A DNA stretch of 63,519 nt, the filler included, from Candidatus Desantisbacteria bacterium CG1_02_49_89 (GTDB lineage: Bacteria > Desantisbacteria > UBA1551), in assembly GCA_001871075.1 (NCBI GenBank). It is 3 parts of 3 records of this genome, joined end to end, with 100 filler letters (N's around TTAATTAATTAA, not from the genome) between each part and the next. Parts side by side here need not be neighbours in the genome. Positions count along the whole stretch, not along the records: positions 1 to 24,288 come from MNUP01000090.1; 2 more parts are not named here. One strand, given 5' to 3'. Shown here in pieces: positions 9,120 to 51,439 of this stretch (the stretch's first letter is position 1; every line of letters starts with the position of its first letter). Under the pieces are notes generated by a model. The model had not been told where the DNA came from and did not search any database. It saw nothing but the letters and a program-made list of their open reading frames with translations. The position numbers were made by a program, and so were the translations under genes.

Positions 9120-9137
9120 TTTGACTCCGTCAAAATA

Positions 9138-9234
9138 AATTATGAATTATGAATGATAAGTTATGAGTCAAAAACAAGGTTTTTAATTTAAATATAATTC
9201 CATGCAGTTGATTCATAATTCATAACTCATAATT
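9138..9234. repeat. Inverted heptamer arrays (TTATGAA/G)n ... (TCATAAT/C)n
   Basis: Same family at 16402-16432, 20547-20577 and 40950-41000. Confidence 0.9.
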
Positions 9235-10444: not shown

Positions 10445-10591
10445 TAAACCATCTCCCTTAAGTATAATGATTTAAGCCATTATATATGGCTTGCCATGAA
10501 CCCGAGCGTAGCGAGCGCAGCGAATTGAAAATTGAACAATAGACCGTCCCGATGTAAAATCGGGACTCTATTTTTCGCTGTGCGAAAAATC

Positions 10592-10666
10592 TGGAGCGGG
10601 CAATGGGATTCGAACCCACGATCTTCGGCTTGGGAAGCCAACATTCTACCGCTGAACTATGCCCGC
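10592..10666 (-). tRNA. tRNA-Gly(CCC)
   Basis: GCGGGCATAGTTCAGCGGTAGAA...TTCCCAA...GGTTCGAATCCCATTGCCCGCTCCA; cloverleaf with encoded CCA. Confidence 0.95.
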
Positions 10667-10792
10667 CCTCAATTACAGTTTACAAAGTTTACAAGTCTAT
10701 AAGTTTACAAGTATAAATACCGCTGCCTGCCCGCCTTTCAAACAACCCGCCATGAACCCGACCCGCCAACATTCGTGGCGGGGAGTGGTTTA

Positions 10793-10868
10793 TGGAGGCG
10801 ACGAGCGGACTCGAACCGCTGAATCGAGGTTTTGCAGACCTCTCCCTTAGCCACTTGGGTACGTCGCC
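10793..10868 (-). tRNA. tRNA-Cys(GCA)
   Basis: GGCGACGTACCCAAGTGGCTAAGGGAGAGGTCTGCAAAACCTC...GGTTCGAGTCCGCTCGTCGCCTCCA. Confidence 0.95.
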
Positions 10869-10874
10869 GAATCG

Positions 10875-11117
10875 CTAATTATCAATTAACTTTATAAACT
10901 CTCTTCCTTTGCCCGTCTTTAAAAATCTTTCTCTTTTTGTTGCGTCTTTTTTATCAGGATATGATTCATAATGAATAATTTTCAATGGTGTTCTGTTTTG
11001 TGTCGATTTTACACTACCGTTATTATGTTCTGCTAATCTGAGCTCAAGGTTTGATGTCATTCCAATATAGTGCTTGCCGTCTTTTTCGCTTTTTAAAATA
11101 TAGACATAATATATCAT
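10875..11117 (-). CDS. Small stand-alone GIY-YIG nuclease
   Basis: YYVYILKS...HYIGMTSNLELRLAEHN...ATKRERFLK; AT-rich relative to neighbours. Confidence 0.92.
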   Translation of the reverse strand: MIYYVYILKSEKDGKHYIGMTSNLELRLAEHNNGSVKSTQNRTPLKIIHYESYPDKKDATKRERFLKTGKGREFIKLIDN

Positions 11118-11165
11118 GTATACTCAATTTTACAAGCGGACTCGCCCGCCACGAATATTGGCGGG

Positions 11166-11229
11166 TTGCAGACCTCTCCCCTCCACTAAAGATTTGGCGG
11201 GCAAGCCTTAGCCACTTGGGTACGTCGCC
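11166..11229 (-). pseudogene. Displaced 5' half (nt 1-37) of tRNA-Cys, interrupted by a 27-nt hairpin insert
   Basis: Identical to 10832-10868 apart from the insert at 11181-11207. Confidence 0.9.
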
Positions 11230-11267
11230 AATAATAATCTATTATCTATTGCTCTATTTTCTGCTTT

Positions 11268-11543
11268 TTATTTATTGACTATTCTTTTAAGTATTTTCCC
11301 TGGTTTAAAATAAGGGACTTTCCGGGCAGGAATACGGATAGTGGTCTTCGTTTTCATTATCTGCGCCGGTTTGGACTTTCTCTGCCTGACCTCAAACGTG
11401 CCCAGGCCGCGCAGCTCTATGGTCTCGCCTTTTTTAAGCCCTTCCCGGATAGCGCCGATCATCCTGTCAAGGATCATCTTCGCTTCCTTAGGCTTAAGGT
11501 TCGCCGCTTTCCCGATAGCGTTTATCAGCGCTTTGCTTGTCAT
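11268..11543 (-). CDS. HU/IHF family DNA-binding protein
   Basis: GETIELRGLGTFEVRQR...IPARKVPYFKPGK. Confidence 0.9.
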   Translation of the reverse strand: MTSKALINAIGKAANLKPKEAKMILDRMIGAIREGLKKGETIELRGLGTFEVRQRKSKPAQIMKTKTTIRIPARKVPYFKPGKILKRIVNK

Positions 11544-11632
11544 TTTTTATCCCGTAACATCGTAACCTCGTAACATGGTAACATCGGCAGGATTTTGACG
11601 ACCAACGATGTTACGATGAACGACGCACGAGT

Positions 11633-12508
11633 TTAAGGTATTACTTTATTAAGCGGGTACTCGATAATTCCTTCCGCCCCCGCCCTTTTGAGCGCGGGTA
11701 TGATCTCCCGGACCTGCTTCTCGTCCACTATCACCTCAAGCGCCACCCAGTCACCCTTGGTAAGAGAAGAGACGGTCGGGTTTTTCATAGCCGGAAGTAT
11801 CTTCAGAACCATCGCAAGGTTCTCCCTGGATACGTTCATTTTTAACCCTACTTTTTCACCTGCGAGCAGCGCGCCTTTCAGGAGTATTGACAGGTTCTCT
11901 ATTTTCTTCTTTTTCCAGGCGTCTTTCCAGGACCCCGGGTTTGCTATCAGCCTTGTGGTGGATTCAAGCACGGTGTCCACTATCCTGAGGTTATTCGCGG
12001 CAAGCGAACTCCCGGTTTCTGTCAGCTCTACTATCGCGTCCGCGAGGTCAGGGACCTTTGCTTCTGTCGCGCCCCATGAAAATTCCACGTCCGCCCTTAC
12101 CCCTTTCCCTTTCAGGAACCTGTTGACCACGTTTACCACTTCCGTCGCGATCTTTTTGTTGTTTAAATCCTTTACTTTTCTTATCGGCGAGTTGATAGGC
12201 ACTGCCAGGACCCACCTGACAGCCGTGAACCCGCTTTTCGCGTAGGTAAGGTCTTCCACTTCCTTCACTTTCGCGCCGCATTCCATTATCCAGTCTTTGC
12301 CGGTCAATCCGGCGTCAAGCTTTCCCATCTCAACGTACCTTGGCATTTCCTGAGCCCTTATAAGCCTGCAGGACATTTCCGGGTCGTCGCAGTACGGCGT
12401 GTAGGATCTGGAAGAAGCCACAATGTTAAACCCGGCCTTTTTGAATAATTCAATGGTTGCCTGTTCAAGGCTCCCCTTCGGTATCCCCAGCTTTAATATC
12501 TTTTTCAT
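11633..12508 (-). CDS. hisG: ATP phosphoribosyltransferase (long form)
   Basis: [31 protein letters not shown]-terminal regulatory domain. Confidence 0.96.
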
Positions 12509-13168: not shown

Positions 13169-13387
13169 GTTTTCACTGATTACACAGATTTTTAAATAGA
13201 TTACACAGATTAAATAAATTCCTTTCCCGAAGGAATCCCCTTGGGACATCCAGGATCTAGCATCCAGGATCTGTATCCGGCTATGAGCTATGAGCTACAG
13301 TAGGCCCATTGCTTCAGCTCTGGGCCGTAGGTCCCTGCATTGCCCGCCAATATTCGTGGCGGGGCAGGGATGAGCCATATGCGTTAG

Positions 13388-16084: not shown

Positions 16085-16440
16085 TTTAACCACACGATTA
16101 CACACGATTTACACGAGATTGCCCTTGTTCCTGCTTTGACACTCTGATTCTATGACTCTTTGACTCTAAATTTAACCACAGAGGCACGGAGGCATAGAGT
16201 AATCTTTGGTTTTTACAAATGACTAACAACTAATGACAAATGACTGCATTTTAACCACAGGTTAACACAGGTAAACACTGTTTGAGTAACTCAAACCTTC
16301 AGGTTTGATATCAGGGCTAAAGCCCTGAGTTATCCGCCCCGATGTTCATCGGGGCGAGACCTCGCCCCAAAGGGGCGGGCAATTAAATTCCTTGTTTTTG
16401 ATTCATAATTCATAACTCATAATTCATAATTGAATTTAAA
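16085..16440. repeat. Stack of about eight different repeat modules between purF-like and tgt
   Basis: (ACACGATT), (CTTTGAC), (CACAGAGG), (AATGACT), (ACACAGGT), TCAGGGCT-AA-AGCCCTGA, double hairpin 16333-16379, (TCATAAT). Confidence 0.9.
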
Positions 16441-21949: not shown

Positions 21950-22011
21950 ATTTTCATTTTATTTTTCATTTGACGTTGACACGTTGATACGCTGACACGT
22001 TGACACGAATT

Positions 22012-22845
22012 TTAATGGTAAACCTGCTTGCCCATAAACTGCCCTCGTTCCCCGTTGAATACCCGCACAGGCATCAGGCAGGCACCCCAGCCTGCCACCA
22101 CCTTGTCTTTCTTAAGCTGCCCTTTTTCAAACCTGGGCCTTGCGCTGGCGACAACGAAGAAAGGCCTGTTTTTCAAACCGATAATATCCAGCCCGAAAAC
22201 TTCTTCTTTTTTCTTGAAGCCGAATATTGTAGCGAATGGGCCGTTTCTTTCCTGCGGCGACCAGTATTTCGGCGAGTCCAGTTTGTATATGGTAAAGGCA
22301 TTTTCCATAAATGCGATCTTCTTTGTTTTTTTCACCCCAAGGGACAGGGCTTTTCTGAAATCCTTGTCGTTGACCGGCCAGGCAGCGTCAAGGCCATTTT
22401 TCTTTGCAGCCATGAATGCGGAAGCCATCGCAATACCTGGGAACATATTTGCTATTTTTTCCTGCAGCATTGAAACCTTAATGGATGCCTGGCGTATTTT
22501 TTCGGCTGCCGGCGGATCAACAAGGGCGGGAAAATACGCCAGGAACAGGCTTTCCTGGATGAAATTCAGGTGACCTTCAAAGTTCAGGCCTCTTGCCTGC
22601 CAGAGCGCGGCTGTCTGCGCCGCGGAGTCAATCGCGTTCTGCATTTTTATGCGCTGCGCGACCATTCTCCCCGTGTTAAAAGTTACCAGGAAGAACATCG
22701 CAAGCACAAGCAGCATCAGCGCCGTAAATACCAGCACCTGCCCCTTCCGGCTCGATAGCAGATCTAAAACTTTTGACTTTTGTTCCAAAGGAACTCCTTC
22801 AGAGCATTTTATCTTTGACACGTTGACACGCTGATACGTTGACAC
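22012..22845 (-). CDS. Tad domain (TadG-like) protein; start uncertain
   Basis: KGQVLVF...MQNAIDSAA..AA. Confidence 0.75.
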   Translation of the reverse strand: MSTYQRVNVSKIKCSEGVPLEQKSKVLDLLSSRKGQVLVFTALMLLVLAMFFLVTFNTGRMVAQRIKMQNAIDSAAQTAALWQARGLNFEGHLNFIQESLFLAYFPALVDPPAAEKIRQASIKVSMLQEKIANMFPGIAMASAFMAAKKNGLDAAWPVNDKDFRKALSLGVKKTKKIAFMENAFTIYKLDSPKYWSPQERNGPFATIFGFKKKEEVFGLDIIGLKNRPFFVVASARPRFEKGQLKKDKVVAGWGACLMPVRVFNGERGQFMGKQVYH

Positions 22846-22850
22846 TGCAG

Positions 22851-23285
22851 TTAGTTCTCCATCCTCATAACGCAGCTTGCCCTTACAGGAATGCGCTGGA
22901 TACCCAATCCGCCCCAGAAGAAACTGAACAGCTTTCCCACGAGCGGAAACTGCAGTTTGTAGTAATGTGTTACTGTAACCTTAAGTTCTGTCAGCGGGAT
23001 CGTGCCCTGCCTGATCATCAGGTCCTTTTCAACTGAAGTTGATATTAAAGCTATGGCAAGATTTCCGGCAATCGGGGCGCAGGCAGTTGAAGCTGACAGC
23101 CTCATCTGGTTGTCATCCGCGTTGTGGACAATGCCGCTCCTGCACGCGCAGAACGCCGCGTAGTTCACAACCGAATACGCGTTAATAATAAGCCCGAACT
23201 GGGCTATACCCATTATAAAAAGCAGCAGCAAAGGAAAAGCTATCGCAGTTTCAACCAGCGCTTGTCCTTTTTGATATCGCGGCAT
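22851..23285 (-). CDS. TadE-like pseudopilin
   Basis: KGQALVETAIAFP. Confidence 0.85.
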   Translation of the reverse strand: MPRYQKGQALVETAIAFPLLLLFIMGIAQFGLIINAYSVVNYAAFCACRSGIVHNADDNQMRLSASTACAPIAGNLAIALISTSVEKDLMIRQGTIPLTELKVTVTHYYKLQFPLVGKLFSFFWGGLGIQRIPVRASCVMRMEN

Positions 23286-23644: not shown

Positions 23645-24288
23645 TCAGTACTGCCGGTATTTTATGGTGAAGTAATCCCATGTTGAAGCATTGTCAGAAT
23701 ATCCTGCCACATATACGTTGCCGGAAGAATCTACCGCGATGCCGCGGCCGCCGTCATAATCTCCCCCGTCATACCTTTTTTGCCAGATCTGGTTTCCGCC
23801 TGCATTATATTTAATAGTAAGAAAATCATAATCTCCGGGGAACGGGTCCGGGTTGAACGAATCTCCGGTTACGTAAACACAGCCTGAGCCGTCAACCGTA
23901 ACGCAATAACCATGGTCGTTGTCAAGATAATCGTATCTCTTAAGCCAGAGAGTTTCGCCGTTTGAATCGTATTTAATTGTGAGGTAATCCGATAAAATAC
24001 TTGGTGTTTTTGATGACGACCCGGTTACGTAGACATTGCCTGAACCGTCAACTGTAATGCTGCGTCCGTAATCGTTCTTCCCGTTATCGTATCTTTTCTG
24101 CCAGACTGTATTGCCGTTTGAATCGTATTTGATCGTCAATTAATCAAAGTCCGCGCCGCTGTGAGAATACCCGGTCACGTAAACGTTTCCCAAGGCATCT
24201 ACGGCGATTTTTTGGCCGGAATCAACGTTCCCGCTGTTGTATCTTCTCTCCCAGACGGTATTGCCGCCTGAATCGTATTTGATAGTTA
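23645..24288 (-). pseudogene. SBBP (beta-propeller) repeat protein, 5'-truncated by contig end, with in-frame TAA at 24140-24142
   Basis: Repeats TIKYD..G..VW.KRYD...I.VD..GNVYVTG; FD*LTIKY where other repeats read DYLTIKY/DYFTIKY. Confidence 0.75.
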
Positions 24289-24388
24289 NNNNNNNNNNNN
24301 NNNNNNNNNNNNNNNNNNNNNNNNNNNNNNNNTTAATTAATTAANNNNNNNNNNNNNNNNNNNNNNNNNNNNNNNNNNNNNNNNNNNN
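24289..24388. other. Artificial contig-joining spacer
   Basis: 44 N + TTAATTAATTAA (stops in all six frames) + 44 N; identical to 46810-46909. Confidence 0.95.
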
Positions 24389-33203: not shown

Positions 33204-33294
33204 CGTGGGATGGAGAATGCCCGGTGGAATCCGGCCTGCTCACCATCTCGCAGGCGTCGCTAAACCGTCCCGATTTATTCATCGGGACAGCGAC

Positions 33295-40930: not shown

Positions 40931-41193
40931 GCCATAGCAGGCCAAGCCAATTATGAGTTATGAATTATGCCCCAAAGGGATCCCTTCGGGAAATTATGAA
41001 TCAACAACAAGGAATTTTATTTAAACAAGGAGTGTTCCCGCCCAAAAGATTGGCGGGTCCGCCAATTAGTGTGGCGGAAACCTGTGGTTAAAAGAGAAGT
41101 TTACATGGTTTGCATAGTTTAAAGAGTTTCCAGGTCAAGATAATTAGTGGAAATTAGTGGAAATTCGTGGTTAGGTGGTTAGGGGGATTTACG

Positions 41194-45175: not shown

Positions 45176-45913
45176 ATGGATAAAATAGAAAGACTGCTGA
45201 AAAAAATAAGGGCGAAAAAACTGGGCGTAAAAAAAGCGATGGAGGAACTGAAGCTGCTTCCTTACGAGGATATCGGTTTTGCGAAGATCGACCATCACAG
45301 GAAGCTGAGGAAGGGCGTGCCGGAGGTTGTTTTCTGCCCCGGGAAAAAACCGGAGCATATAGCGCTAATTATGTCGAAGATCCTCAGGTATACCGATACC
45401 GTGCTTGCCACCAGGGCTTCTCCGGATATTTTCAAGCTCGTCCAAGGCAGTATACCTGACGCGATCTACTTTGAGGACGCCGGGATAGTGGCAGTATGCA
45501 GGGGCAAAAAAGCGCGGAAACGCGGCAGGGTCCTTGTAGTGAGCGCCGGTTCAGGCGATTTCCGCGCTGCCGAGGAGGCAGCGGTTGTCCTTGAGCTTCT
45601 GGGGAACAGGGTTGATCGCCTCTACGACGTGGGGGTCGCGGGCCTGCACAGGCTGATATCAAACAAGGACAAGCTCAGTAAAGCGAATGTTATTATTGTC
45701 CTGGCAGGTATGGAGGGAGCGCTGGCAAGCGTTGTGGGCGGGCTTACAGACAAACCGGTCATAGCGGTTCCCACAAGCATAGGGTACGGGGCAAGCTTCA
45801 GGGGCATCGCGCCCCTGCTCACAATGCTTAACTGCTGCGCGCCCGGGGTTACGGTTGTGAACATTGACAACGGGTTCGGCGCGGGCTATTTCGCGCACCT
45901 TATAAATAAATAA
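45176..45913 (+). CDS. larB: Nickel pincer cofactor biosynthesis protein LarB
   Basis: AKIDHHR, DVGVAGLHRL, AGMEGAL, VPTSIGYG, VNIDNGFGA. Confidence 0.93.
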   Translation: MDKIERLLKKIRAKKLGVKKAMEELKLLPYEDIGFAKIDHHRKLRKGVPEVVFCPGKKPEHIALIMSKILRYTDTVLATRASPDIFKLVQGSIPDAIYFEDAGIVAVCRGKKARKRGRVLVVSAGSGDFRAAEEAAVVLELLGNRVDRLYDVGVAGLHRLISNKDKLSKANVIIVLAGMEGALASVVGGLTDKPVIAVPTSIGYGASFRGIAPLLTMLNCCAPGVTVVNIDNGFGAGYFAHLINK

Positions 45914-46030
45914 AAGCGTGTCAGAGTGTCAACGTATCAACGTGTCAAAGTAAATACATTTTCAGTAATTCTTTGTTGTTACGCTGATACGCTGATACAT
46001 TGATACGTTGATACGCAGTAAGGAAAAAGA

Positions 46031-46809: not shown

Positions 46810-46909
46810 NNNNNNNNNNNNNNNNNNNNNNNNNNNNNNNNNNNNNNNNNNNNTTAATTAATTAANNNNNNNNNNNNNNNNNNNNNNNNNNNNNNNNNNN
46901 NNNNNNNNN
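46810..46909. other. Artificial contig-joining spacer
   Basis: 44 N + TTAATTAATTAA + 44 N. Confidence 0.95.
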
Positions 46910-49166
46910 AAAACACCCGGATGTTTTTGAGGATATTAAAAAATACGTAAAGAACGGGCAGTGGGAGATAACAGGCGGCACCTGGGTTGAAGGCGATATG
47001 AACATGGCATCGGGTGAAGCCATTGTGCGCCAGATACTTTACGCGAAAAGATACTTTAAGGAAAAATTCAATACGGACGTGGAGATCTGCTGGTCGCCTG
47101 ACACGTTCGGCCACGCATGGACAGTGCCCCAGATACTCGCGAAGAGCGGGATAAAATATTATTATTTCTGCAGGTGCGGCAAAGGGATACCCGCGTTCTG
47201 GTGGGGGTCGCCTGACGGGTCAAGGGTGCTTGCGTTCAACTGGGACTGGTACAACCTTGAAGTGAAGCCCGGGACTGTAAGGAACGCGGTTAGCGCGGCA
47301 AGGAAGGCCGGGCTGAAAGACTGGATGTATGTTTACGGGGTGGGTGACCACGGCGGCGGGCCGAGGAAAGAGGACATAGATAAAGCAATAAGCTTTAACA
47401 GGCTGGACGGTTATCCCAGGATGAAGTTCTCCACTGCCAGGGATTTTTACAAAACACTGGAGAAACAGGAGGGCCTGCCCGCGATAAACACAGAGCTTAA
47501 CTTTGTGTTCGAGGGATGCTACACAACGCACGCTGATATCAAGAAGTATAACCGTGTGCTTGAGAACGCGCTTCCGCAAGCGGAGATGCTTTCCGCCGCT
47601 GCCGCGCTTTACGGGCGGAATTACCCGCAGGATGCTTTCACCGACGCCTGGAGAAAAACCTGCTTCAACCAGTTCCATGACATCTTTGACGGCTCAGCCA
47701 TACACGGTTCCTATGCATACTCAAAAAAATTGTTCAACATAGCTTATGAAACAGCGGTTCTCGAGCTTGACGGTTCTTTAAAAACAATGGGTTCTAAAAT
47801 AAAGTTCCAGGAGAAAACAGGGACACCGGTCCTTGTGTTCAACACTCTGTCCTGGCAAAGGGATGATATCTGCGAGATAAAGATCCCGGTAGGATCAGCG
47901 AAGGAAAAATTCAGGATATTCGAGGGAAAAAATGAGGTGCCCTCCCAGTTCACAGGCATTGAAGAAGACGAGAACGGAAAGCTTTTCCTTAAAATCGTTT
48001 TTATCGCAAGGGACGTGCCGGCTGCGGGCTATAAAACTTATTACGCCTTGCAGGGATCCGGTCCTCAAATCGGCGGCGGAGAATCGTTAAGAGCGGGTGT
48101 GACCTCATCCACTATCAAGGCTGAGAACAAGTTCTATAAAATTACCATTGACCCGCTTACAGGCTGCATATCAGGCATCTTCGACAAAGAGAACAGTTAC
48201 GAGATCCTGCCAACGCTGGAAAGCGCGAACATGCTGCAGCTGCTTTTTGAAAAACCGCACGATATGTCCGCCTGGAACATAGGCAAGATATCCAGGACCG
48301 AGGACCTCAGTTTGGACTGCACTGTCACGCTTGTGGAAGACGGGCCTGCAAGGATAAGGGTCCGCGTGTGCCGCGTTTTCGGCAGTTCTTCGTTCTGCCA
48401 GGACATTGTGCTTTACGACGGGATGCGGCGGATCGATTTCCCCTGCCGCGTAGACTGGCAGGAACAGGGAACAAAATTAATAGATAGCCCGATGTTGAAA
48501 GTCGCGTTCCCTTTTTCGCTGAAAGAAAGCTCAGCGCGGTTCGAGATACCGTTCGGCAGCATAACAAGGCCTGCGAACGGGCACGAATACCCGTCGCAGA
48601 AATGGATGGACGTCAGCGGAATCACAGAATCCGGAATTGCATACGGGCTGAGCCTGCTGAACGACAGCAAATACGGATGCGACGTAAAAGAAGGCGTGAT
48701 GCGCCTGACCCTGTTGAGGTCCTCTTATGATCCGGACCCCAGGCCGGACAAAGGCATCCAGGAATTCACGTATTCTCTCTTTCCTCACAAAGGCAGGTGG
48801 GACGCGCGCACTGTCCGCGCAGGTTACGAGCTCAATAACCCATTAGTTTGCATTCCCGTCGAACGTCGAACGTCGAACGTCGTACGTCAGGATCTGCCCG
48901 AGATACATTCATTTCTATCCCTGGAACCGCAGAATCTGATACTTACCGCTTTCAAAAAAGCTGAGGATTCGGACGATATCATAATAAGATTTTACGAAAG
49001 CGAAGGCAGGGAAACCAGTGCGGAGATAAAATTCGGGTTTCAGGTGAAGGAAGCGGGGGAAACCGACCTTATGGAAAAGGAAATACGCGGCATACCCTTG
49101 CAGGACGGCAAAATAACGCTGAAAACCGGGAAATACGAGATCAAAACACTCAGATTAAAGATGTAA
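46910..49166 (+). CDS. GH38 alpha-mannosidase (5'-truncated)
   Basis: GGTWVE, WSPDTFGH, GVGDHGGG, NQFHDI, LLNDSKYG, LTLLRS. Confidence 0.92.
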
Positions 49167-50289: not shown

Positions 50290-51231
50290 ATGCTGGCAAA
50301 AAGGATAATACCGTGCCTGGACGTGAAGAATGGCAGGGTTGTCAAGGGCATACACTTCAGGAACCTGCGGGATGCCGGTGACCCTGTGCAGAACGCGGCT
50401 TTCTACAGCAAAGAAAGCGCTGATGAGCTTGTATTCCTGGATATCACGGCTACGATTGAAAACCGCAAAACTGTCGTTAATATGGTCAGGAAAACAGCTG
50501 CCAGGGTATTTATCCCTTTCGCGGTCGGCGGTGGGATCAGGAACATCAAAGACATCGGGGTCCTGCTCAGATCAGGCGCGGACAAGATCTCCATAAACAC
50601 CGCGGCTATAAAAGACCCCCTGCTGATAAAAAGGGCTTCCCGCAAATTCGGGAGCCAGTGCGTGGTGGTGGCGATAGACGCCAAAAGAATCACCAAAGTC
50701 AAAAGTCAAATTGCAAAATGTAAAATGTCCCCCCTTGCCCTTAATGGGCAGGCAGAGGGGATTTCGCTGCCAGCTCAACAAAAGTTTAAAACCCTTACAC
50801 GTAACACGTTATCCGCCCCGATGAATATCGGGGCGAGACCTCGCCCCAGTGCTTACTGGGGCGGGCACCTTACACCGTCTTCAAGGTGGGAAGTTTACGT
50901 CAACGGCGGGAATACACCGACCGGCATAGACGCGGTGAAGTGGGCGAAGAAAGCGGAAAAACTGGGGGCCGGCGAGATACTTCTGACAAGCATGGACAGG
51001 GACGGAACTTTAGACGGGTACGACATCCCCCTTACGCGCGCTGTCAGCGAAGCCGTGAATATCCCGGTGATAGCGTCCGGCGGAGTGGGAAACCTGAAAC
51101 ACCTGTATGACGGCATAGCGAAGGGAAAGGCGGACGCTGTGCTTGCCGCTTCCATATTCCACTATAGAAAATATTCGATACGCCAGGCAAAGCAATACCT
51201 TAGAAAACGGGGCATACCCGTGAGAATATAG
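50290..51231 (+). CDS. hisF: Imidazole glycerol phosphate synthase cyclase subunit with about 60-aa repeat-derived insertion
   Basis: [34 protein letters not shown]; insertion between AIDAKR and WEV. Confidence 0.96.
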
Positions 51232-51439
51232 GAAAAGCGTGTCAACGTGTCAACGTGTCAGCGTGTCAGAGTTTAAAAATAATCCTGGATTAAGGAATTT
51301 TACCTTTGACTTTGTCCCCGCAGATTTCTTATGAAATCTAGACGCTGGGATCCCTTAGGGACGATTTGACTTTTGACCTTTGAGTTCTCCGTGCCTCCGT
51401 GGTAATTTTGTAAATCCGTATGCATCCGCAAAAACAAAA

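Follow-up and report, generated by a model that had tools for sequence, protein, structure and literature searches.

A small GIY-YIG nuclease gene between a dead and an intact tRNA-Cys copy in Candidatus Desantisbacteria: a probable member of a widespread family of tRNA-associated cassettes

We analyzed a 63,519-nucleotide (nt) stretch of the genome of Candidatus Desantisbacteria bacterium CG1_02_49_89 (hereafter, the window), in which an intact gene for a stand-alone GIY-YIG nuclease of 80 amino acids (aa) lies between an intact tRNA-Cys gene and a dead copy of the same tRNA that bears a GC-rich hairpin. The locus probably holds a very small, nuclease-only selfish cassette that belongs to a widespread family. 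The cassette unit is most likely a stand-alone GIY-YIG gene for about 80-100 aa, located in or against a tRNA gene on the strand of that tRNA. Each cassette most likely brings along, or generates, one complete copy of the tRNA; on its other side a dead copy of the same tRNA remains, in which GC-rich (T/C)CCGCC-loop-GGCGG(A/G) hairpins most likely replace tRNA arms or half-arms. The architecture of the locus, its recurrence in other genomes, the association of the gene with a same-strand tRNA, a dead tRNA copy and hairpins, the multi-copy status of the nuclease, and full, relic and empty states of one homologous locus are observed directly.

The features on the minus strand follow the order hisG (12508-11633), the HU gene (11543-11268), the dead tRNA-Cys copy (11135-11229), the nuclease open reading frame (ORF; 10875-11117, stop codon included), the intact tRNA-Cys(GCA) (10793-10868), a hairpin, tRNA-Gly(CCC) (10592-10666) and argJ. 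Both complete tRNA genes were called by ARAGORN; tRNA-Cys folds into a cloverleaf at -16.1 kcal/mol (z -2.8), and the nuclease stop codon is 6 nt ahead of its nt 1. The dead copy was not called as a tRNA by ARAGORN and was delineated by a blastn-short comparison of tRNA-Cys with the window. It consists of colinear blocks that correspond to tRNA nt 1-24 (11229-11206, 24/24, E 1.4e-8), nt 23-37 (11180-11166, 15/15, E 0.003) and nt 56-65, a remnant of the T arm (11144-11135, 10/10). The first two blocks are separated, at nt 24/25, by an insert of 25-27 nt (11205-11181). The T-arm remnant is preceded by a perfect module-A hairpin, CCCGCCAATATTCGTGGCGGG (11145-11165, minus strand; a stem of 7 base pairs (bp) and a 7-nt loop), which therefore replaces nt 38-55 and folds as single-stranded DNA (ssDNA) at -8.6 kcal/mol (z -2.45). 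The dead copy is nearly a whole tRNA, in which nt 38-55 are replaced by the hairpin and only the 3' acceptor strand is absent. A second module-A hairpin (10762-10782, minus strand), with one mismatch and with its loop inverted relative to the first, is located 10 nt past the CCA end of the intact tRNA-Cys, so that the hairpins bracket the gene and the tRNA. A promoter scan reported a promoter-like site at 11135-11106 that overlaps the nuclease start codon; it was not used in the interpretation.

All features listed for this locus by the first-pass annotation were recovered at the stated positions; the observation is confirmed with corrections, and the interpretation that accompanied it is partly supported. 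The orphan tRNA piece had been described as nt 1-37. These blocks are present, but the T-arm remnant lies beyond the hairpin, and hence it is wrong that the 5' half alone was duplicated. The insert at nt 24/25, which had been taken for a 27-nt hairpin similar to module A, does exist but forms only an imperfect hairpin (-4.2 kcal/mol, z -0.35) that folds no better than shuffled sequences. The small nuclease-only unit was correctly recognized, with a size of about 270-400 bp. The suggested entry of this unit at tRNA position 37/38 is not supported: the position is occupied by the hairpin, the gene leader begins after nt 65 of the dead copy, and the ends of dead copies vary from about nt 34 to nt 71 across the 13 homologous loci with a downstream tRNA that were read in detail. 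Two other candidates were rejected. An archaeal-type tRNA intron or split tRNA does not fit, since the hairpin takes the place of nt 38-55 instead of interrupting the tRNA, and a complete tRNA-Cys is found at a distance of 270 nt. A group I intron carrying a homing endonuclease gene would require a larger unit and an interrupted tRNA.

The nuclease matches the GIY-YIG family PF01541 at residues 3-69 (E 1.3e-16, 61.1 bits against a cut-off of 22.6). Residues Y6, Y17, G19, R27, H31 and E63, as well as the other invariant columns of 22 aligned relatives, are all present in the window protein; the Tyr/Tyr/Arg/His/Glu motif residues presumably have the catalytic roles assigned in work on I-TevI. 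The AlphaFold (AF2) model has a mean pLDDT of 95.7, and Foldseek matched it to the UPF0213 structure 1zg2 (E 5e-5), to Slx1 (6seh; TM score 0.71, root-mean-square deviation 2.1) and to the catalytic domain of I-TevI. Profile matches were obtained to BH0048 (1zg2; E 9.6e-15), EF2693 (1ywl; E 2e-13) and SLX1 (E 8e-6), and the UPF0213 match covers profile positions 2-70. The protein is predicted to be an intact single GIY-YIG domain with the GIY-YIG alpha/beta fold and no second domain, and the Pfam match, the motif residues and the modelled fold assign it to the GIY-YIG nuclease superfamily (PF01541). No NCBIfam model matched the window protein above its cut-off; the best match, to a group I intron endonuclease, reached 24 bits where 56 are required and extended over profile positions 4-40 of 215.

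A word-indexed search yielded 25 relatives at E <= 0.001 among 27 candidates, and a profile search of 1.84 billion representatives yielded 30,298 proteins at E <= 0.001; at the stricter limit of E <= 1e-10 it yielded 9,152 cluster representatives. Among the 150 best profile matches, nearly all have 78-141 aa. Proteins P0146-P0150 and P0152 (157-214 aa, one with 655 aa) match the profile in two stretches, which could reflect either genuine fusions or tandem cassettes that were read as a single gene.

The genomic context of the relatives was analyzed in loci found by a pattern scan, with the pattern built on a 7-row alignment and one genome taken per species. The scan returned 599 stretches, 529 of which encode a relative of the nuclease, and the best 80 loci were selected. 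They are labelled as Patescibacteria groups, Bacteroidota, Ignavibacteria, Calditrichia, Planctomycetota, Acidobacteriota, Chloroflexi and Gammaproteobacteria, and individual loci are designated here by L numbers. ARAGORN found a tRNA at most 300 nt from the best nuclease match in 62 of the 80 loci. All 62 adjoining tRNAs are located on the strand of the nuclease gene, 41 of them downstream, as in the window, and 21 upstream; 26 different anticodons are represented. The background density of tRNA genes, measured in the same loci more than 1 kb from any nuclease match, is 0.10 per kb (25 tRNAs in 251,174 nt). Among the 18 loci without a near tRNA, nine have the nuclease match within 300 nt of a contig end, and two (L004 and L022) have a second nuclease copy between the gene and the tRNA.

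Duplicated tRNA segments are a regular part of these loci. In 37 of 60 loci the flank opposite the tRNA contains an exact copy of at least 12 nt of that local tRNA, with copies of at least 15 nt in 25 loci and of at least 20 nt in 15 (two of the 62 loci were dropped, as their opposite flank is shorter than 150 nt). No exact tRNA match of 12 nt or more was obtained with 600 control segments taken from these loci. The duplicate starts at tRNA nt 1 if the tRNA is downstream, and ends at the tRNA 3' end if the tRNA is upstream. The latter, mirror order (tRNA, gene, 3' pseudo-copy) is common, accounting for 21 of the 62 loci. None of the 13 tRNA-downstream loci read in detail retains the 3' acceptor strand in the dead copy.

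The dead copies are marked by hairpins. Internal replacements, defined as segments bounded by two colinear tRNA blocks, were found in 50 cases, and 43 of them are hairpins with a stem of at least 5 pairs (the list includes a few cross-matches between paralogous tRNAs). The segments that these hairpins replace are the D arm, the T arm, and the whole anticodon arm or a single strand of it. Within 300 nt of a nuclease match (71,564 nt in total), the strict motif (T/C)CCGCC-N3-9-GGCGG(A/G) was counted 49 times, compared to 12 times in the other 354,466 nt. The densities of 0.68 per kb near the gene and 0.03 per kb elsewhere correspond to an approximately 20-fold enrichment, and 31 of the 80 loci contain at least one such motif. 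The loop has 3 nt in 43 of the 50 hairpins with full flanks, which makes the 7-9-nt loops of the window unusual.

The positions of hairpins are reproducible within a tRNA type across distant genomes. The tRNA-His copies in L003, L052 and L058 all consist of nt 1-24, a hairpin in place of nt 25-32, and nt 33 onward. The Cys module GGTCTGCAA-CCCGCC..GGCGGG-CGA(A/G)TCCG is shared by the window, L001 (Calditrichia) and two loci of Ignavibacteria (L002 and L007). L001 encodes the closest relative of the window protein (59% identity), and the T-arm remnant beside its hairpin differs from the T arm of the local tRNA, being one mismatch from the remnant in the window. This similarity hints that pieces of the dead copy could travel with the cassette. 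Taken together, these data demonstrate that the family link between the nuclease gene, tRNAs, tRNA duplicates and hairpins is real and strong, and the test proposed in the first-pass annotation, namely whether homologues are found beside tRNA genes, half-tRNA duplicates and CCCGCC..GGCGGG hairpins, gave a strongly positive result.

Two peculiarities of the hairpins were observed in individual loci. The tRNA-Pro called by ARAGORN at positions 5-81 of L027 has a D arm that is the hairpin CCCCGCC-ATC-GGCGGGG, and near-copies follow at 89-137 and 434-463, so this gene is probably a mis-called, hairpin-substituted dead copy. Upstream of the nuclease gene in L014, L017, L028, L032 and L075, as well as at 41037-41078 in the window, hairpins form tandem pairs whose loops are reverse complements, for example TCCGCC-CAA-GGCGGA followed by TCCGCC-TTG-GGCGGA, i.e. 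a hairpin and its own inverted copy.

Several observations are consistent with mobility of the cassette. Five genomes of 0.9-4.0 Mb contain 10, 4, 9, 1 and 6 matches to the nuclease profile, with up to nine matches in a genome of 1.1 Mb. Tandem arrays of the type tRNA, gene, dead tRNA, gene are present in L070, L005, L048 and L022. On the protein tree (92 proteins, 78 columns, weakly resolved) the identity of the adjoining tRNA changes 38 times, compared to 50.7 +/- 1.7 changes in shuffled data, and none of 300 shuffles gave a number as low as 38; the tree includes a clade of 12 proteins at tRNA-Ser from several Patescibacteria groups.

Full, relic and empty states were observed at the tRNA-Ser locus L012 and its relatives. 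L012 contains a full cassette with a 71-nt exact duplicate, and the displaced nt 72-88 are located further downstream. Relatives with the same upstream flank have about 69-71% identity. L189 and L190 contain clean tRNA-Ser pairs, and L186 and L192 have no nuclease and retain orphan 3' fragments, which is exactly what direct-repeat recombination of a cassette would leave. In L186, the acceptor stems of tRNA-Ser(TGA) and tRNA-Ser(CGA), GGAGAGG and GGAAGGG, are swapped relative to L012, L189 and L190, which suggests recombination between the two neighboring tRNA-Ser genes.

From these patterns we infer a mechanism that involves cleavage specificity, homing, hairpin function and mobility, each step of which is held with less confidence than the selfish cassette itself. 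By analogy with the Ssn nucleases described below, the enzyme could recognize the hairpins in ssDNA, perhaps along with those arms of tRNA genes that form hairpins, and nick beside them; the hairpins would then be its cognate sites. With the dead piece and the intact tRNA as two homology arms, of a kind present in every bacterium, repair of the break by homologous recombination could then place a copy of the cassette in a tRNA allele that lacks it (homing) or multiply the cassette in tandem. The intact tRNA would keep the host viable and would force co-transcription of the nuclease gene from the tRNA promoter; such a dependence of nuclease expression on the tRNA promoter would explain the same-strand arrangement in all 62 loci. 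The hairpin substitutions would kill the spare tRNA and at the same time disrupt the direct repeat, through which the cassette would otherwise be lost. We also consider a bolder version, which is possible but rather doubtful: the nuclease and the hairpins could make up a complete autonomous mobile element of about 300-400 bp, among the smallest known. It would cut hairpins in single-stranded tRNA-gene DNA, use the tRNA sequence as portable homology arms, and home across phyla, as tRNA sequence is common to all bacteria. By placing its own recognition hairpin in the disabled tRNA copy, it would gain both a mark of immunity and a launch site, and the scattered module-A hairpins would be its non-autonomous offspring.

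A number of points weigh against a selfish, mobile cassette. GIY-YIG enzymes hydrolyse DNA and cannot join strands, so the element cannot transpose alone, and its mobility needs host recombination. The intact neighboring tRNA would also be a target, unless the enzyme requires the hairpin. The clustering of tRNA identities on the protein tree can also be obtained from vertical descent and kinship alone. The five genomes contain another 25 paralogues, which are more distant; only eight of these are located at most 300 nt from a tRNA (all eight on the same strand), and the association with tRNA genes is thus confined to part of the family. The hairpin flanks at the homologous loci are not conserved in flank logos, unlike the oriented NTS of the Ssn system described below. 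The SRM search sequence of the Ssn paper, as given there, has no matches in the window (0.3 on average in shuffles) and matches in two of the 80 loci. No filled and empty pair was found for the window locus itself in an ArgJ-anchored scan of metagenome contigs: relatives with an uninterrupted HU-tRNA-Cys-tRNA-Gly locus, which the first-pass annotation had proposed to look for, were absent from the 80 loci recovered (45-53% identity), none of which has the HU/tRNA-Cys/tRNA-Gly/argJ order or a nuclease match. HisG relatives with 74-85% identity are present in the protein collection. Finally, the contig that lacks the block in two metagenome runs (see below) comes from a divergent relative and lacks tRNA-Cys as well.

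Two known systems resemble the cassette in the way it may work. The Ssn/NTS/SRM system was described by Chenal et al. (Nat Commun 2025; PMC11893778): as presented in its main text, Ssn enzymes are single-domain GIY-YIG proteins (94 aa for SsnA) that act on ssDNA only and cleave it next to the hairpin repeats by which their own genes are flanked. The window protein, with 80 aa and one Pfam domain, is similar in size and organization to this group of about 80-94 aa. In both cases GC-rich hairpin repeats are found on both sides of the gene and scattered in the genome, with an insertion sequence-like order of hairpin, gene, hairpin, and in both cases the family is widespread across phyla. In contrast to the Ssn repeats as described there, the hairpins found here have another consensus and no conserved oriented flanks. 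The word tRNA is absent from the main text of PMC11893778, and nesting in duplicated tRNA genes is therefore outside the system as that text describes it. The first-pass annotation considered this nuclease to be the best candidate within the window for the enzyme that mobilizes module A. The link between nuclease and hairpins is indeed the best lead in the window, and Ssn/SRM provides a precedent (PMC11893778), but mobilization as such is something we infer. The best sequence and fold matches of the window protein, the UPF0213/YhbQ-type and SLX1 nuclease domains, have no assigned link to tRNA genes. A further parallel comes from fungal mitochondria, where mobile GIY-YIG ORFs, such as that in Allomyces atp6, carry a duplicate of the end of the target gene and are accompanied by GC-rich hairpin elements. 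The ORF sits in the gene, a replacement copy is provided, the native piece is displaced as a pseudo-piece, and hairpins are located nearby; the targets are organellar protein-coding genes, the ORFs are larger, and neither tRNA nesting nor the replacement of RNA arms by hairpins is known there.

SegB is a phage-borne, two-domain protein of roughly 200 aa that includes a DNA-binding part. In contrast, the catalytic domain found here stands alone, has 80 aa and is encoded in cellular genomes; a Seg-type C-terminal DNA-binding domain is absent from the window protein both in the Pfam analysis and in the AF2 model. SegB, encoded among the clustered tRNA genes of phages T4 and T6, is a homing endonuclease of the free-standing GIY-YIG type (PMC2330249, PMC13096335), and its nuclease activity, together with phage recombination proteins, yields tandem units of tRNA-Tyr plus segB (PMC13096335). 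The likeness thus includes a GIY-YIG gene set among tRNA genes and, for SegB, cleavage of tRNA-containing DNA; the tandem units of tRNA and nuclease resemble the arrays in L070, L005, L048 and L022. The hairpin-substituted dead tRNA copies are a difference, as no such copies are reported for SegB. The 2006 survey of the GIY-YIG superfamily does not mention adjacency to tRNA genes in the passages found (PMC1564403), and our literature searches turned up no account of small GIY-YIG genes that lie within duplicated tRNA genes of bacteria. Hairpin-associated stand-alone GIY-YIG nucleases and free-standing homing nucleases at tRNA genes are known; tRNA nesting with hairpin-bearing dead copies sets the present locus apart from them. 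By analogy, the window system may work most like Ssn/SRM and SegB; membership in either is not established.

Alternatively, the nuclease could serve the host, being placed in tRNA operons for strong expression, with dead tRNA copies as by-products of cutting; we regard this as unlikely. In variants of this explanation the enzyme might restrict incoming hairpin-bearing ssDNA, like SsnA, or promote amplification of tRNA loci, like SegB. The passages cited above do contain precedents for such benefits, as SsnA modulates transformation in Neisseria (PMC11893778) and SegB-dependent amplification helps phage T6 (PMC13096335). The same-strand rule, which has no exceptions among 62 loci, would fit co-transcription, and the gene is intact with its invariant residues kept. 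However, a housekeeping role predicts one stable orthologous locus, whereas the distribution is patchy and multi-copy (the 1.1-Mb genome being the extreme case), 26 different anticodons are involved, and relatives of the L012 locus either have no cassette or retain relics only. It is more doubtful still that the hairpins are independent REP-like repeats, which would be moved by another enzyme encoded outside the window, would simply collect in DNA that the cell can spare, dead tRNA copies included, and would have no relation to the GIY-YIG gene. The intergenic module-A copies at 13343-13363 and 41037-41078, far from any tRNA or nuclease, and the existence of other hairpin families in the window are compatible with such repeats, and a RAYT-type gene could lie in the genome outside the window. 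Yet no Y1 transposase was found among the 56 window ORFs scanned, the same hairpin consensus accompanies the nuclease gene across many phyla with the 20-fold enrichment within 300 nt, and the same tRNA positions are affected in distant genomes (His nt 25-32 in L003, L052 and L058; Cys nt 38-55 in four genomes).

The locus might also be an att-type scar of an integrase island, or a decayed tandem tRNA duplication, with the nuclease as a chance passenger. Integration classically takes place at tRNA genes and usually leaves partial tRNA repeats as scars; nevertheless, we consider such an origin very improbable, as the scan of 56 window ORFs found neither integrase nor transposase, in agreement with the first-pass annotation, the unit between the repeats has only about 270 bp, it is the 5' part of the tRNA that is duplicated, and the same layout recurs at 62 of 80 homologous loci. 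Least credible of all is an assembly artefact, in which the duplicated 24-nt tRNA start caused a mis-join in the metagenome bin. The window is composed of three contigs joined by artificial N linkers at 24286-24388 and 46810-46912 (N's around TTAATTAATTAA), so that distances across these positions are meaningless, and the contigs assembled from individual runs do break at the repeated segment. On the other hand, all 24 listed groundwater/aquifer runs contain 69-97% of the sampled words of 10500-11700, and the same layout is present in dozens of unrelated assemblies. Moreover, three of the four runs examined (X3, X13 and X24) have a 385-nt contig that is identical to 10845-11229 with 0 differences, and spans the start of the intact tRNA-Cys, the gene and the entire dead copy. 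No single contig covers the full locus in any of the four runs, and some bins of the locus are without cover in X13, X22 and X24.

Another contig, found in X3 and X13, joins 10667 to 11278 with 5 other letters between them, and represents a co-occurring divergent relative without the 610 bp that comprise the dead copy, the gene, tRNA-Cys and the hairpin. It hints that the 610-bp block could be dispensable at this place, the contig being no clean empty site. Short-sided contig joints 10546->11242 and 10594->11228 (sides of 21-25 nt) were also seen and were not interpreted. The mean word depth of the 385-nt cassette contig is higher than that of the flanking contigs (89.9 vs 48-62 in X3, 19 vs 5.7-8.4 in X13, and 9.6 vs 3.5-4.4 in X24), which is only a hint that the cassette is present in more than one genome or place, contig depth being a poor measure.

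If the locus is indeed a selfish cassette, thousands of small genes annotated as 'GIY-YIG nuclease family' would be selfish elements living in tRNA genes. This would also account for many tRNA fragments and pseudo-tRNAs with hairpins, which at present are interpreted as scars of integrases or mistaken for tRNAs. Universal tRNA homology would provide a route for DNA between phyla. The family would also supply very small nucleases that are directed by hairpins and differ in specificity from known ones, comparable to those through which the Ssn family became useful as ssDNA tools.

Module A is over-represented in the window: CCCGCC-N9-GGCGGG occurs four times compared to 0.27 expected, and none of 100 shuffles reached four. 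Besides the copies that bracket the nuclease gene and tRNA-Cys, a third module-A copy is found in an intergenic region at 13343-13363; it is identical to the 11165-11145 hairpin read on the nuclease strand and has no tRNA or nuclease alongside. The intergenic region at 41037-41078, likewise away from any tRNA, contains a tandem double hairpin, CCCGCC-N9-GGCGGG followed by the related family member TCCGCC-N9-GGCGGA. The hairpin beside tRNA-Gly carries GAATGTTGGC (10764-10773), a 10-nt exact match to tRNA-Gly nt 21-30 (about 10637-10646) at the junction of the D and anticodon stems. The other two module-A copies have A at the single differing loop position. This match may be due to chance or to local conversion.

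The window contains two further intergenic hairpin families. One has the form GTCCCGAT..ATCGGGAC (10546-10566, directly after tRNA-Gly, and 33267-33288), and the other is a paired family, CGCCCCGAT..ATCGGGGCG-agacct-CGCCCC..GGGGCG (16335-16377 and 50814-50863). In addition, intergenic spacers are packed with short tandem motifs with a period of 7-9 nt, similar to TGACACGT-, ATTCATAAC- and GTTTACAA-, which recur across the window in both orientations, for example at 21961-22014, 22808-22853, 45904-46022, 51225-51280, 9132-9234, 16381-16437 and 10674-10712.

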